Shown: one piece after another, positions 946 to 13,740 of the stretch
Layout: every line of letters begins with the position of its first letter
Numbering within the stretch: position 1 is the first letter of the stretch
Origin: a virus
Lineage: Duplodnaviria > Heunggongvirae > Uroviricota > Caudoviricetes
IMG/VR virus record: IMGVR_UViG_2695420746_000009
Coordinates: 1 to 13,740 of that record
Reading direction: 5' to 3' (one strand)
Length of the DNA: 13,740 nt
Notes under the pieces: model-generated
The model's database searches: none
What the model was told of the DNA's origin: nothing
What the model saw: only the letters and a program-made list of their open reading frames with translations
Program-made: the position numbers and the translations under genes

Positions 946-2022
946 TTACTCAAATAACTTTTTCACTTCATCAACTGTCTGAAGATAACGTTCGCTCTCA
1001 ATCTCAATACCTATTGCCTGACGTCCTAACTTCAGCGCAGCTTTAATAGTTGAGCCTGATCCCATAAAGAAATCGGCAACGATATCTCCGGGGCGTGAAC
1101 TACTCTTTATAATATGTTCCATCATCGCTGCAGGTTTTTCACATGGGTGCTTGCCAGGATAATATTGCACAGGAGGAAACTCCCATACATCGGTATAAGG
1201 TACATCAGCAGTAACATGAAATGGACGGCGTAAATTTTCATACTGAGTCTTCAAATCATCATACTGCTTCTTTACTTCCTCATAATGCAATTTCAGATCG
1301 CTATAACGCTTTTCATGTTCTGAATAATCAACATTAAAAGGATATGGACACGGGACACCGAGTGAATCTGCCTTCCTGCGAAATAATTCGCATAGTTTAT
1401 TAAAATCAATTAATGATGGAAGCCGCCACTGCGAATAAGAAAACCAGTGTGAACACATCTGCTTTCCTGTCGCTGAATTAATGTCTGCGGCTGATATATC
1501 TAACTGACGGCGAGCCAGCGAAAAAGCATCAATTAGTGGAGAAAATATATTTTTTCTTAAATCTGCACATTTTGAAGCATAACCTGACTGACCTTTAGCA
1601 TAACCTGACGCGCCGTAATGCTCTGCAAATAATATTCTTTCAGTAGCAGGAAAATAAGCCCTTAAACTTTCTTTATGACAACCGCGCCACATACCACTGG
1701 GTTTAGCCCAAATGATATGGTTCAGAACATTGAAACGGTCGCGAGTTAATAATTCAATTTTTGACGCAAGGCGAGAGCCGGTAAACATATACAGGCTGCC
1801 ATTAGGGGCCAATATCCGCCAAAATTCTGCCAAAAATTCGTCAATCCACCCCAAAAAGTCAGCATCGCTATCCCACTGGTTATCCCATGCGTTAGCCTTT
1901 ACGCCGAAGTATGGTGGGTCTGTTGCAATCAAATTGACCGAGTTATCAGGGATGGTTTTGATAAATTGCAGAGAATCTGCGCAAACGAGTTGTGCGCCAT
2001 GAATATTAGTGGTTTTGAACAT
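946..2022 (-). CDS. DNA N6-adenine methyltransferase, beta class (orphan, phage late-region moron)
   Basis: Motif IV DPPY near the N-terminus (LIATDPPYFG) and motif I FxGxG near the C-terminus (DFFMGSGST), i.e. the beta-class order. A coiled-coil-like insert (KRYSDLKLHYEEVKKQYDDLKTQYENLRR) lies in the presumed target-recognition region. Start chosen at the ATG giving MFKTTNIHG; the ORF track extends to 2067. Neither start has a clear SD. Confidence 0.85.
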   Translation of the reverse strand: MFKTTNIHGAQLVCADSLQFIKTIPDNSVNLIATDPPYFGVKANAWDNQWDSDADFLGWIDEFLAEFWRILAPNGSLYMFTGSRLASKIELLTRDRFNVLNHIIWAKPSGMWRGCHKESLRAYFPATERILFAEHYGASGYAKGQSGYASKCADLRKNIFSPLIDAFSLARRQLDISAADINSATGKQMCSHWFSYSQWRLPSLIDFNKLCELFRRKADSLGVPCPYPFNVDYSEHEKRYSDLKLHYEEVKKQYDDLKTQYENLRRPFHVTADVPYTDVWEFPPVQYYPGKHPCEKPAAMMEHIIKSSSRPGDIVADFFMGSGSTIKAALKLGRQAIGIEIESERYLQTVDEVKKLFE

Positions 2023-2157
2023 AGCTATTATTTTTTTGCCTGGGTAAGCTAACCCAGCGATGCGCATCGCGGGTGGGCTTTAGGTTCAGCCTATAGCTCT
2101 GGCATGGGTTGACCGCAGGACAAGCTGCAACTTGTCCTGCGCCCACTTTTCAGGCAC

Positions 2158-2915: not shown

Positions 2916-3227
2916 ATGTTTAACGTGATAACCCACCCTGCAGCACTGGATGAACTGCTTGAACTACCAGACGATCTGCGAGGTCGCATGACCAGGCTAA
3001 TTGAACGACTGGAGAAAGAGGGAAACAAACTTAAGATGCCCCATAGCCGTGTAATAGGCGGAGGACTCTTTGAACTAAGAGTAGGGGATAAAAACATCGC
3101 AAGAACGCTATACGCCTACGCGACTGGTAACGAAATTTATCTATTGCATGCATTTGTAAAAAAGACACAGAAAACACCAGTAAAGGCTATAGAAATCGCC
3201 AGAACTCGCCTGAAGGAGATGAACTGA
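2916..3227 (+). CDS. Type II toxin, RelE/ParE superfamily, HigB/Gp49-like (addiction module killer protein)
   Basis: 103 aa from the ATG with SD AGGAGG 7 nt upstream. Family-typical motifs LFELR, LLHAF and KKTQKTP. Stop overlaps the start of the downstream HTH gene by 1 nt. The ORF-track start at 2871 is over-extended. Confidence 0.8.
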   Translation: MFNVITHPAALDELLELPDDLRGRMTRLIERLEKEGNKLKMPHSRVIGGGLFELRVGDKNIARTLYAYATGNEIYLLHAFVKKTQKTPVKAIEIARTRLKEMN

Positions 3228-3514
3228 TGAAAGCAAAAGGCATCCCGTTTAACGAAGTAAAGGAAAAACTACTCAACACTCCAGAAGCTATCAAAGGATA
3301 TGAAGAGGCCGATAAAGAACTGGAGATGGTCGAAATGTTATACGAAATGAGGGAAAGAGCAGGTTTAACGAAGTCAGCTCTGGCAGAACGAATGGGATTG
3401 CGCCCGTCCGCCATCAGCCGCCTGGAAAGCAATCCTTTAGGGGCAAGCATGAAAACTTTATCAAAATATGCCCAAGCATGTGGCGCAACAATTAATATTA
3501 ATGCCGTCTATTGA
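3227..3514 (+). CDS. HTH (XRE-family) antitoxin, HigA-like antidote protein
   Basis: 95 aa. Classic HTH LTKSALAERMGLRPSAISRLE. Translationally coupled to the upstream toxin in toxin-first (HigBA-type) order. Confidence 0.8.
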   Translation: MKAKGIPFNEVKEKLLNTPEAIKGYEEADKELEMVEMLYEMRERAGLTKSALAERMGLRPSAISRLESNPLGASMKTLSKYAQACGATININAVY

Positions 3515-3531
3515 TTAATCACTTTTCACTA

Positions 3532-3551
3532 CCCCGTCCAGAAGGGCGGGG
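3532..3551. terminator. Hairpin between convergent genes (possible bidirectional terminator)
   Basis: CCCCGTCC-AGAA-GGGCGGGG, an 8-bp stem with one G-U pair. Lies between the antitoxin stop (3514) and the stop of the convergent ORF (3558). Flanking U-tracts are poor. Confidence 0.4.
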
Positions 3552-3557
3552 TGTGTA

Positions 3558-3776
3558 TCAATGATGTAAACACTCCACAGCAATCGCTTGTTGGCAATTC
3601 TGAGCAATCTCCCGCGACATACTAACAAGCCGTGAAATCTCGCCAAGATGCAAGCTAGCTTCGGGAGAAGCCAGAGCAACGCTAACCAGATCCAAAACGG
3701 CGTCGATGTCTTTTAGGTTTGATCCGAGTTCTTCAAGAGTTGATACAGATGCTTCAGTCATTGAATCTAATACCAT
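3558..3776 (-). CDS. Hypothetical small acidic protein; candidate LexA-regulated gene
   Basis: 72 aa, rich in D/E. No recognisable SD in front of the ATG. A consensus-like LexA box lies 23 nt upstream. Coding status uncertain. Confidence 0.4.
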   Translation of the reverse strand: MVLDSMTEASVSTLEELGSNLKDIDAVLDLVSVALASPEASLHLGEISRLVSMSREIAQNCQQAIAVECLHH

Positions 3777-3798
3777 TTAATTAAAAAAGGTTATTTGA

Positions 3799-3818
3799 TA
3801 CTGTATAAAATTACAGGG
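3799..3818. promoter_or_regulatory. Candidate LexA (SOS) box
   Basis: TACTGTATAAAATTACAGGG: CTGT-N8-ACAG with an AT-rich spacer, 16 of 20 matches to TACTGTATATATATACAGTA. Overlaps a possible -10 (TACAGT on the minus strand) for the 3558-3776 ORF. It is the only CTGT-N8-ACAG found in the intergenic regions inspected. Confidence 0.55.
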
Positions 3819-4017
3819 TAAAACTCAAATTTTATAGCCAACTTTCAATGGATTAACAGGGTTAATAGCTTTGTAGTCCGATACTTATGTTCTCTTCCTA
3901 CGCCTCACTCAACCACCTACAGAAGCCCATCATCACCATAAGAAAAACTCTTTTCGCTTCGTTTTCTCATCATTTCAAAAACTATGCCTTTTTGTTTATT
4001 TATCATTCCGTGACCAG

Positions 4018-4344
4018 TCACACTTTGAGCACAAGTTTCAGCCTCGTAGTTGTAAGGTGACATGAGCCTTCACCATCAAAAATACATTCTGAAACAGGCA
4101 TTTTCTGACCACATCGCGGGCAAGTAGTAGATAGCTGCTTCTGCAGCTCCTTATAGTTTTTCCTGATCAGCAGACCGATGACTTCATTCTCTGAATATGG
4201 AACTCGTCCCGGTCTACGCAATACACAAATTTCCCCCAACATACGTAGCTCGTCAGGTTCCAGAATCCAGTCCCGTCTTGATGTGCCTTCCTTCTTCAAC
4301 CGTTCCCTGCGTCTCCTTTGCCGTTCTGCAGCTGTCAGCGCCAT
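4018..4344 (-). CDS. Hypothetical protein with arginine-rich N-terminus and C-terminal Cys cluster
   Basis: 108 aa. SD AGGAGG 4 nt upstream. N-terminus AERQRRRRERLKK; Cys cluster CPRCG...C...C. Last gene of the minus-strand operon. Confidence 0.6.
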   Translation of the reverse strand: MALTAAERQRRRRERLKKEGTSRRDWILEPDELRMLGEICVLRRPGRVPYSENEVIGLLIRKNYKELQKQLSTTCPRCGQKMPVSECIFDGEGSCHLTTTRLKLVLKV

Positions 4345-7812: not shown

Positions 7813-8409
7813 ATGAAAACACGAGGCGAACGACTGAAAGCACGCCGTTTAGAGATGAAGCTGACGTTGCGAGAAGTTGCTGAGGCTGTCGATATCTCTA
7901 TAGCAGGCGTCCAAAACTTAGAACGTGGCGACGTAATGCCGTCACTGGAGATAGGTATTGCCCTGGCTAAGTGCTTACGCAAGCCAGTGCATTGGGTGCT
8001 ATATGGGACAGAATATGACCCTGATCGCATTCCTGTTATTGGCACAACTGAAAGTGGGCCTGATGAAGAGTGGAAGCCGGGACAGGTTCCAAATACTGAG
8101 CGATTCCTGCCATTCATCAGCCAGCGCAATACTGTGTATGCGTTAACTATCAGCAATCTTACGCAGGGAAACTATCAGCCAGGCGATTTTCTCCTGGTCG
8201 ATTCTGCGCTGGAACTGGTCCCCGGCGAGGATGTTCTGGTTCGTGATACTGCAGGAAATATCACTATCCAGCGCCTAGCCCGTTTTGATGATGAAAATTA
8301 CTATCTGGATGGAACAAACTCACAACGCGCCATCTTCAGGAAAAGCGATCTTGAATTTGTTCACCAAATAGTCGGAACGATCAAATCATTCATGGTTGAG
8401 GGTAGATGA
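7813..8409 (+). CDS. CI-like prophage repressor (N-terminal XRE HTH, C-terminal CI/LexA-like domain)
   Basis: 198 aa. HTH LTLREVAEAVDISIAGVQNLERG. C-terminal region resembles lambda CI around PGDF (QPGDFLLVDS ... VGTIKS). I could not locate a canonical G-D-S-M catalytic Ser context by eye, so autocleavage competence is uncertain. Confidence 0.8.
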   Translation: MKTRGERLKARRLEMKLTLREVAEAVDISIAGVQNLERGDVMPSLEIGIALAKCLRKPVHWVLYGTEYDPDRIPVIGTTESGPDEEWKPGQVPNTERFLPFISQRNTVYALTISNLTQGNYQPGDFLLVDSALELVPGEDVLVRDTAGNITIQRLARFDDENYYLDGTNSQRAIFRKSDLEFVHQIVGTIKSFMVEGR

Positions 8410-11600: not shown

Positions 11601-12698
11601 AAACTTGTCCGCTGGGATATTGAAAACGAACTGAAACTACCGGTTGAAGAAGGCACGCTGAAATTCTATTTCGATGGTGCTCGAGACAAAGTTCGCCGCT
11701 ATGAAACAATGCTTTTAGATGAGGTAACAGCTCGTCGTTACGACCGGGAAGAAGCAGCCATCAATTTTACCTACGCATACCGTCAGGCGGGACAGTGGCA
11801 ATATTTTGTAGTGACCGCGATGACTCGCGAGCAGGCTGATGATGTCTTTAAAACTAAATTCCCTGGAATAATCGATCACAAGGTAAAAGCTACTCCTACT
11901 GTTGAAGTCGGGGCGCGCGGTTTCTATGCGCTTAAATCAGCAACTCTCCGGCAGTACTTTATCGACTGCGGTATCAACCCTGAGACTATGACCGGCGAGG
12001 CGACTCAGGAGCGTCTCAAATTTGCTCGAGATAACCTCATGACAGCCGAACGCCGTGACCTGTTGAATAACGTTCTGCACATTGGTGGTTTTATGACGCC
12101 AAAAGGGAAGCCTAAAGTGCCGGAAGCGTTGTTTAAAAACATTTGCGACTCTCTTGGCCTTAAAACAGGTAAACGTCGCGGCAGAGACGGCGATAAGCGT
12201 CCAACCTTGCGTTTTGTTGAGCCTGAATCAGCGGCATTTATGCTGGATATTCTTGCTCAGCGTCAGAAAGATGGCCTAACCCTGAAAACGCGTAAAGCCG
12301 AGAAGACCGCCATCGAAATGGATCGCGATTTGGATCTCAATATATATATGGATGATAAAACGCGATCCACAAACGAGCAGGTTCAAAACGCCCCTCATTC
12401 AGTAATTTCTGAGGCTTTGGCTGTGTTGCCAGTGGTTGTACCTGAGTCCTGGGCGATGAGTGCGCTTTCCGGTGAGGAGCTGGCCACTATGTCATCATGG
12501 TCATCAGCCAGCATAGCTATGACGTTTGCATCTCTGTACCTCACAGAGTTCATGGATCACTTATCCAGCAATGAACTGCGGCGGTTACGTGAATACATTA
12601 CCGGGAATAGCTGGATTTGCCCCTATATTTCCAGACATCTGTTATCACTTAACCCATTACAAGCCCGCTGCCGCAGATATTCCCGTGGCGAGCGATAA
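8655..12698 (+). CDS. Large multidomain replication initiator (primase-helicase, N15 RepA-like); 3' end disrupted by IS2
   Basis: 1347 codons as an ORF. Toprim-like motifs ([12 protein letters not shown] and CALDNDR) around aa 280-330, Walker A GMGSGKST around aa 535, Walker B-like FGFDEAT, then a roughly 700-aa C-terminal region. Native sequence ends at 12611 (1319 codons); codons 1320-1347 are read from the IS2 terminal inverted repeat. Weak SD. Confidence 0.8.
9017..9034. repeat. Palindrome TGCGACC-GT-GGTCGCA; copy 3 of the motif, inside the repA-like coding sequence
   Basis: Read directly. Encodes ATVVAQ in a charged linker ([21 protein letters not shown]), in the same codon phase as copy 2 (ATAVAQ). 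Confidence 0.5.
12320..12368. other. Candidate origin-like element inside the 3' part of the repA-like gene
   Basis: 8-bp inverted repeats GGATCGCG / CGCGATCC flank ATTTGGATCTCAATATATATATGGATGATAAAA, which includes an (AT)5 run and three GATC sites within 49 bp. Confidence 0.3.
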
Positions 12699-13528
12699 CC
12701 CAGCGCACTATGCGGATGCCATTCGTTATAATGCTCGAACGCCTCTGCAAGGTTCTTTGCTGCCGTTAACCCGTCTGGTTTGGGCATGATACTGATGTAG
12801 TCACGCTTTATCGTTTTCACGAAGCTCTCTGCTATTCCGTTACTCTCCGGACTCCGCACCGCCGTGTTCTTCGGTTCAAGTCCCAACATCCGGGCGAACT
12901 GGCGTGTTTCATTAGCCCGGTAGCATGAACCATTATCCGTCAGCCACTCCACTGGAGACGACGGAAGATCGTTGCCGAAGCGGCGTTCCACCGCTCCCAG
13001 CATGACGTCCTGTACTGTTTCACTGTTGAAGCCGCCGGTAGTCACCGCCCAGTGCAGTGCCTCACGATCACAGCAGTCCAGCGCGAACGTGACACGCAGT
13101 CTCTCTCCGTTATCACAGCAGAACTCGAACCCGTCAGAGCACCATCGCTGATTGCTTTCTTTCACGGCCACTCTGCCTGTATGTGCCCGTTTCGATGGCG
13201 GTACAGCAGGTTTTCGCTCAAGCAACAGCGCATTCTGGCGCATGATCCGGTAAACACGTTTGGCATTGATCGCAGGCATACCATCAAGTTCTGCCTGTCT
13301 GCGAAGCAGCGCCCATACCCGACGATAACCATACGTGGGCAGCTCTCCGATAACATGGTGTATACGGAGAAGCACATCCGTATCATCAGTGTGACGACTG
13401 CGGCGGCCATCCATCCAGTCATCGGTTCGTCTGAGAATGACGTGCAACTGCGCACGCGACACCCGGAGACAACGGCTGACTAAGCTTACTCCCCATCCCC
13501 GGGCAATAAGGGCGCGTGCGCTATCCAC
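12623..13528 (-). CDS. insD: IS2 transposase OrfB (InsD), normally expressed as an OrfAB fusion by -1 frameshift
   Basis: 301 aa beginning [23 protein letters not shown] and ending SDNRCLEI, matching IS2 InsD from memory. DDE-type integrase core. Confidence 0.9.
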
Positions 13529-13740
13529 TTTTTTGCCCGTCCATATTCAACGGCTTCTTTGAGGAGTTCATTTTCCATCGTTTTCTTGCCGAGCAGGCGC
13601 TGGAGTTCTTTAATCTGCTTCATGGCGGCAGCAAGTTCAGAGGCAGGAACAACCTGTTCTCCGGCGGCGACAGCAGTAAGACTTCCTTCCTGGTATTGCT
13701 TACGCCAGAGAAATAACTGGCTGGCTGCTACACCATGTTG
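13486..13740 (-). CDS. insC: IS2 OrfA (InsC), C-terminal part (5' end beyond the window)
   Basis: Reverse strand reads ...[20 protein letters not shown] ... [24 protein letters not shown], then a stop. Overlaps the insD start region, which contains the slippery AAAAAAG. Confidence 0.85.

Follow-up and report, generated by a model that had tools for sequence, protein, structure and literature searches.

A short open reading frame (ORF) on the minus strand of an N15-like plasmid-prophage, together with the predicted LexA box in front of it, very likely forms the antC module, a single-gene, SOS-controlled unit that triggers induction of the element. The system is already known from phage N15, of whose antC the present gene is an uncharacterised orthologue, and the finding raises no new biological question. 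Its value lies in annotation: the product is labelled "hypothetical protein" on more than 1000 E. coli, Shigella, and Klebsiella contigs, and the gene is absent from the N15 reference annotation. As the trigger of SOS induction, antC would also explain how these phage-plasmids respond to DNA-damaging antibiotics despite a repressor that does not cleave itself. A preliminary description of this DNA had suggested that a LexA-repressed antirepressor passes the SOS signal on to a repressor that cannot be cleaved, a proposal that orthology to the N15 gene and the N15 literature now support. The window referred to below is the whole stretch of viral DNA that was analysed (13,740 bp); its relevant features are as follows.

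2916-3514, plus strand: gp49/gp48 (Tad-Ata / HigBA-like) toxin-antitoxin pair, matching Pfam Gp49 (E 3.8e-29) and HTH_3
3532-3553, no strand assigned: GC-rich hairpin (RNA fold dG -21.7 kcal/mol, z -3.5 against shuffles)
3558-3761, minus strand: probable antC orthologue, 67 aa plus stop, from a conserved ATG; RefSeq/PGAP calls the same span
3762-3776, minus strand: five-codon N-terminal extension of a 72-aa ORF, from an upstream ATG that is not conserved
3799-3818 (20-mer), no strand assigned: predicted LexA (SOS) box, palindromic core CTGT-N8-ACAG at 3801-3816, from sequence and conservation
3800-3828, minus strand: putative sigma-70 promoter of antC, with -35 TTGAGT (3828-3823), a 17-nt spacer, and -10 TACAGT (3805-3800)
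7813-8409, plus strand: CB-type prophage repressor, helix-turn-helix (HTH) plus degenerate S24-like C-terminal domain, 78% identical to N15 CB

The element and its repressor

Sequence matches to plasmids and to phage N15, together with a gene order like that of N15, assign the window to an N15-like linear plasmid-prophage of E. coli. Two E. coli plasmids of 46-47 kb are 100% identical to the region and fourteen more are 82-94% identical; all sixteen matches are on plasmids (the E. coli plasmid matches span 45-68 kb). Phage N15 itself is about 72% identical to the region, and the N15-like phages PhiR46_1 and YDC107_1 are 83% identical. As in N15, the genes run lysozyme, holin, methylase, gp51, gp50, gp49/48, the small ORF, gp46, and further early genes, after which the N15-type order continues with Q, Cro, the CB repressor, and RepA (1347 aa).

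The late-gene block (methylase/holin/lysozyme) comes after gp51/gp50, which is also the case in N15; its methylase ORF (946-2067, minus strand) could start at 2067 to give 373 aa, and the PGAP start is at 2022. An insertion sequence of IS2 type, presumably IS2 to judge from its terminal repeat, occupies 12612-13740; its end reads TGGATTTGCCCCTATATTTCCAGACATC…, and a transposase ORF (12623-13528, minus strand) lies inside it. The element is inserted about 39 nt ahead of the repA stop codon, so that the C-terminus of RepA in the window is IS-derived. A near-identical plasmid (NZ_JBVFXE010000005.1) has no IS2-type element at this point, and different genes continue there.

The CB repressor scores 21.3 bits against Pfam Peptidase_S24, below the 23.3-bit cut-off. 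It was aligned with E. coli LexA, lambda CI, and an S24 relative (MAFFT), and to UmuD structures (phmmer). Both alignments place Q153 in the column of the catalytic Lys (LexA VTVKRL, CB ITIQRL). In the Ser column, MAFFT places T117 of the window protein and an Ile of N15 CB, and phmmer against UmuD places N115 of the window protein. The Ser-Lys dyad of the self-cleaving LexA/lambda CI (S24) repressors is thus not present in these alignments, which bears out the earlier impression that the CI-like repressor has no obvious catalytic Ser motif. Because its S24-like domain is without the dyad, the window CB is presumed to be unable to cleave itself and to be the target of AntC. Its N15 counterpart is non-proteolytic by experiment and stays uncleaved on SOS induction (PMC10432266).

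The small gene, its putative promoter, and its surroundings

The preliminary description had named a 72-aa acidic ORF without a Shine-Dalgarno sequence, convergent on a toxin-antitoxin locus. All of this stands except the start codon. The 72-aa frame is present (3558-3776, minus strand) and its product is acidic (pI 4.4, and 4.5 when shortened to 67 aa), but the start is most likely the ATG at 3761, which would give a product of 67 aa, because that ATG is invariant among the aligned relatives and the one at 3776 is not conserved; the RefSeq/PGAP gene call (3558-3761) begins at the same codon. At the position of the 3776 ATG, phiKO2 has CTG and NAR688 has CGG, and PhiR46_1 then has an in-frame TGA; the segment 3762-3776 is probably a non-coding 5′ leader. 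A canonical Shine-Dalgarno sequence is absent ahead of both ATGs (3776 and 3761) in the window allele; in relatives, AGG sits 7 nt upstream of the conserved ATG. The tetramer GGTA (3774-3771, minus strand), which lies 10-13 nt ahead of the conserved ATG, is invariant in 40 of 40 distinct sequences; in the window allele it is shorter than a normal Shine-Dalgarno sequence and lies further from the start than such a sequence would.

Selection on the frame is purifying, with pairwise dN/dS of 0.09-0.26 wherever dS could be estimated, and the ORF is therefore judged to be a protein gene and not a small RNA. Changes fall predominantly in the third codon position (against the N15 ORF, for example, 23/14/44 for the three positions), the reading frame is unbroken in every locus examined, and 24 protein columns, including DAVLD and SPEASLH, are invariant at an overall identity of about 50%. 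Rfam gave no match at E <= 1 on either strand of window positions 3300-4200.

The gene is widespread among related elements, and its family is narrow. By tblastn it was found in 13 phage records and 213 plasmids, where it is often unannotated; the hosts are Klebsiella, Escherichia, Enterobacter, Citrobacter, and Shigella. An exhaustive search among 1.84 billion representatives returned 6 proteins at E <= 1e-3, one of which (P0064) is a low-complexity repeat and looks spurious; a word-indexed protein search returned close relatives only, and a scan of genome contigs found just two loci with the ORF. One of the two, a 52-kb contig in a GTDB record titled Limoniibacter endophyticus, an unrelated species outside the enterobacteria, carries a Klebsiella-type antC allele with its box and may represent assembly contamination by a Klebsiella telomere phage-plasmid.

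The window protein and the corresponding N15 product both match PHROG 6301 ("unknown function") and, more weakly, PHROG 10889 ("anti-repressor"; E 2.5e-6 for the window protein and 1.4e-8 for the N15 protein); a distant relative of 66 aa also matches both. An AF2 model (pLDDT 87.7) predicts a two-helix hairpin, with helices at residues 2-30 and 33-66 and the turn formed by the invariant Ser-Pro of the SPEASLH motif. The product has no match in Pfam or PADLOC; a sequence-profile search of PDB gave chance matches only (E >= 0.055), and Foldseek against viral and PDB libraries gave generic helical hairpins only, none at E <= 0.001.

The predicted LexA box reads TACTGTATAAAATTACAGGG on the plus strand and CCCTGTAATTTTATACAGTA on the strand of the gene, and its spacer is all A/T. 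In all 13,740 bp of the window there is a single CTGT-N8-ACAG core motif, at 3801-3816. Shuffled versions of the window contain 0.19 matches on average, and 34 of 200 contain at least one; by itself, then, the motif has no significance within the window. It is from position and conservation that the predicted box draws its significance. Related loci (61, with 34 distinct upstream sequences) were gathered from annotated records, IMG/VR, and GTDB genomes. Every one of them carries a predicted LexA box whose end is 38-42 nt away from a single conserved ATG downstream; the motif is perfect in 60, the exception being phiKO2 with ATGT as its left half; the loci span Escherichia, Klebsiella, Enterobacter, Citrobacter, and others. 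Among 40 distinct sequences, 14 of 20 columns are invariant in the box versus 14 of 92 in the rest of the intergenic region, and the right half, TATACAGTA (3807-3799), does not vary at all; this half-site, about 40 nt before the ATG, can serve as a marker for the induction module in N15-like elements. Of its 20 positions, the window box shares 15 with the consensus TACTGTATATATATACAGTA (its left flank is CC, where the consensus has TA), and the genuine E. coli lexA box 2 shares 14.

The -10 hexamer and spacer of the putative antC promoter fall within the predicted box, as anticipated in the preliminary description, which had placed an AT-spaced LexA box over the likely -10. TTTG (3829-3826) and the bases of the -10 are invariant among the 40 distinct sequences. 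The hexamers would correspond to a weak promoter: a hexamer scan with a threshold of 9/12 called no promoter for antC, and TTGAGT/TACAGT has 8/12 matches to the consensus. An alternative -10, TATCAA (3800-3795), would overlap the box too. The gene is on the strand of the early operon, and a terminator scan found no terminator upstream of it; as a speculation, read-through from the early operon after derepression might reinforce AntC synthesis.

Downstream, the gp49/gp48 pair is convergent with antC in a layout that matches N15 genes 49/48; the antitoxin gene ends at 3514 and the ORF at 3558, with 43 bp between them. The GC-rich hairpin in this interval (3532-3553) is likely to stop transcription from both sides, that of antC and that of the antitoxin gene; it has no T-run and was not flagged by the terminator scan. 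The convergent cassette is gp49/gp48 in the window, N15, and phiKO2; in a Citrobacter plasmid (NZ_CP056423.1, locus 1780-2439) a HicA-type pair takes its site, with the ORF and its box kept, and antC is therefore not tied to the gp49/gp48 pair. On the other side, a homologue of N15 gene 47 (window 3820-4017, minus strand) has decayed: its start ATG has become ATA, it has a 1-nt deletion, and relative to PhiR46_1 and N15 it has an internal deletion of 87 bp; PGAP annotates nothing here. Directly downstream of this remnant, antC and its box are intact. Between the decayed gene 47 and the hairpin, antC has no adjacent dinI-like ORF.

Probable assignment to antC and the alternatives

In the N15 genome an unannotated ORF (MVYDSMTDAAV…; NC_001901, 39589/39604-39816) lies between genes 47 and 48; the window ORF is 56% identical to it over 68 aa (E 3e-26). 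The N15 ORF is preceded by CCCTGTGTTTATATACAGTA, and its box and leader can be aligned with those of the window base for base. In N15, phiKO2, PhiR46_1, an Enterobacter plasmid, and the window alike, the ORF is flanked by genes 46/47 on one side and by the convergent gp48/gp49 pair on the other. Annotated N15 gene 47 was rejected as the counterpart; it has no similarity to the ORF and is a different gene one position upstream. CTGT-N8-ACAG occurs three times in the N15 genome, once within gene 16, where the spacer is GC-rich, once before the umuD-like gene 26, and once before the ORF, so that only the latter two are boxes with an A/T spacer. Gene 26 (21692-22078) has its own near-consensus LexA box, TACTGTATAAAAAAACAGTT at 21658-21677, and in alignment its product has Thr instead of Ser at the catalytic Ser column and keeps the Lys.

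Work by Mardanov and Ravin in 2007 reportedly established antC as a LexA-repressed antirepressor of the N15 CB repressor, and we take N15 antC to be the formerly unannotated ORF between genes 47 and 48. According to the N15 literature, antC starts induction, its product is directed against the prophage repressor, and the gene lies apart from both immA and immB (PMC4488713); two further sources describe N15 AntC as a LexA-controlled antirepressor (PMC3121763; PMC11652158). Since the 47/48 ORF has the sole A/T-spaced box besides that of gene 26, and since antC lies outside immA and immB, elimination makes it highly probable that this ORF is antC.

The following sequence of events is proposed. 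In a lysogen, host LexA bound to the box would block the antC promoter at its -10 and spacer and so keep the gene silent. On DNA damage, RecA would become active, LexA would cleave itself, and antC would be transcribed, giving a 67-aa acidic protein of two helices. AntC would bind the non-self-cleaving CB, which would then no longer act at its operators, and the loss of CB activity would derepress the Cro/Q early operon and repA. The N15 literature is the source for control of antC by LexA and for the action of AntC on CB, and we infer that both carry over to the 56%-identical allele; binding of AntC to the window CB would accordingly involve an allele only 54-56% identical to that of N15.

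It is quite unlikely that the gene, SOS-induced as proposed, serves some other damage-linked purpose, as an anti-defence gene (also raised in the preliminary description), a modulator of the toxin-antitoxin system, or an SOS modulator, with the N15 antC located elsewhere. Such a role would suit a family in which no database annotation uses the name AntC, every member being a "hypothetical protein" and PHROG 6301 being of "unknown function", and a gene that directly adjoins a toxin-antitoxin pair; the N15 ORF, moreover, is equated with antC by elimination. Against this, the only other A/T-spaced LexA box in N15 precedes the umuD-like gene, antC is placed outside immA/immB in the literature (PMC4488713), and the Citrobacter relative has exchanged its toxin-antitoxin genes for HicAB and retained the ORF with its box. 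PADLOC and Pfam give no match, the sister family PHROG 10889 is labelled anti-repressor, and nothing beyond the antirepressor context suggests a role in defence.

That the LexA-controlled transcript acts as a non-coding or antisense RNA against the convergent toxin-antitoxin locus, the ORF being incidental or untranslated, is very improbable: the frame is intact in all loci examined and evolves as a coding sequence, with low dN/dS, an excess of third-position changes, and 24 invariant columns at about 50% identity. The missing Shine-Dalgarno sequence, on which the preliminary description based its suggestion of a small RNA or a silenced product, is a trait of the window allele; in relatives an AGG stands 7 nt ahead of the ATG. 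Rfam offers no match. The transcript does converge on the antitoxin gene across 43 bp and one hairpin, but the ORF stops short of that gene and antisense overlap would need read-through of the hairpin. A chance occurrence of CTGT-N8-ACAG in AT-rich intergenic DNA, leaving the gene outside LexA control, is exceedingly improbable; one match in the window is not unusual by the shuffle counts, and the left flank is CC and not TA, yet all 61 loci have the box, always at a fixed spacing from the start codon amid intergenic DNA that varies, and it overlaps the sole plausible promoter and is as near the consensus as lexA box 2.

Within the preferred reading as an SOS-controlled antirepressor, the window and PhiR46_1 types form an E. 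coli/Shigella clade of AntC with the C-terminal tail …CQQAIAVECLHH. AntC is about 54% identical to its N15 counterpart and CB 78%, so the target range could have changed; it is nonetheless unlikely that AntC of this clade has different or broader targets, such as the repressors of co-resident prophages (in trans, after the manner of the Gifsy antirepressors) or a host factor. In the same speculative vein, the weak link to PHROG 10889 hints at a wider, unrecognised family of two-helix antirepressors to which AntC would belong.

Comparison with known systems

The nearest system is N15 AntC, taken here as the product of the box-bearing N15 ORF. The two share genomic position, a LexA box over the promoter, 56% protein identity, and the type of partner repressor (window CB is 78% identical to N15 CB). 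They differ in the C-terminal third of the protein, which diverges (…QNCQQAIAVECLHH in the window, …HRCKDVVADELIRQAGE in N15), in the box spacer and left flank, and in the adjacent gene 47 homologue, which is decayed in the window. The family also includes, at 48-52% identity, phiKO2 Gp47 and ORFs that are unannotated in Klebsiella telomere phages of the NAR688 type, with the same synteny and box position as in the window; phiKO2 has the left half-site ATGT, not CTGT, and these alleles have the AGG ribosome-binding motif that the window allele is without.

Tum of coliphage 186 follows the same logic: the annotated -10 of its dedicated promoter p95 lies inside a LexA site, and its product inactivates a non-cleavable CI by binding. 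Tum differs in having 146 aa and being fused to a DinI-like half, and phage 186 is P2-like, not N15-like. Membership of AntC in the Tum family was considered and rejected (hhalign probability 0.2); Tum is found in PHROG 189 and others, not in 6301 or 10889. The Gifsy antirepressors GfoA and GftA of Salmonella (Lemire et al. 2011) are likewise small, LexA-controlled, and trans-acting, target short or non-cleavable repressors, and are encoded outside the immunity region; they form part of a dinI-antirepressor-irsA operon, whereas antC stands alone with no dinI homologue.

Qtip of the Vibrio telomere phage VP882 and the smORF antirepressors are under the control of a quorum-sensing receptor or a dedicated transcription factor instead of LexA, and their partner repressors are autoproteolytic; they resemble AntC in being small, in their association with a linear plasmid-prophage, and in inactivating cI without proteolysis.
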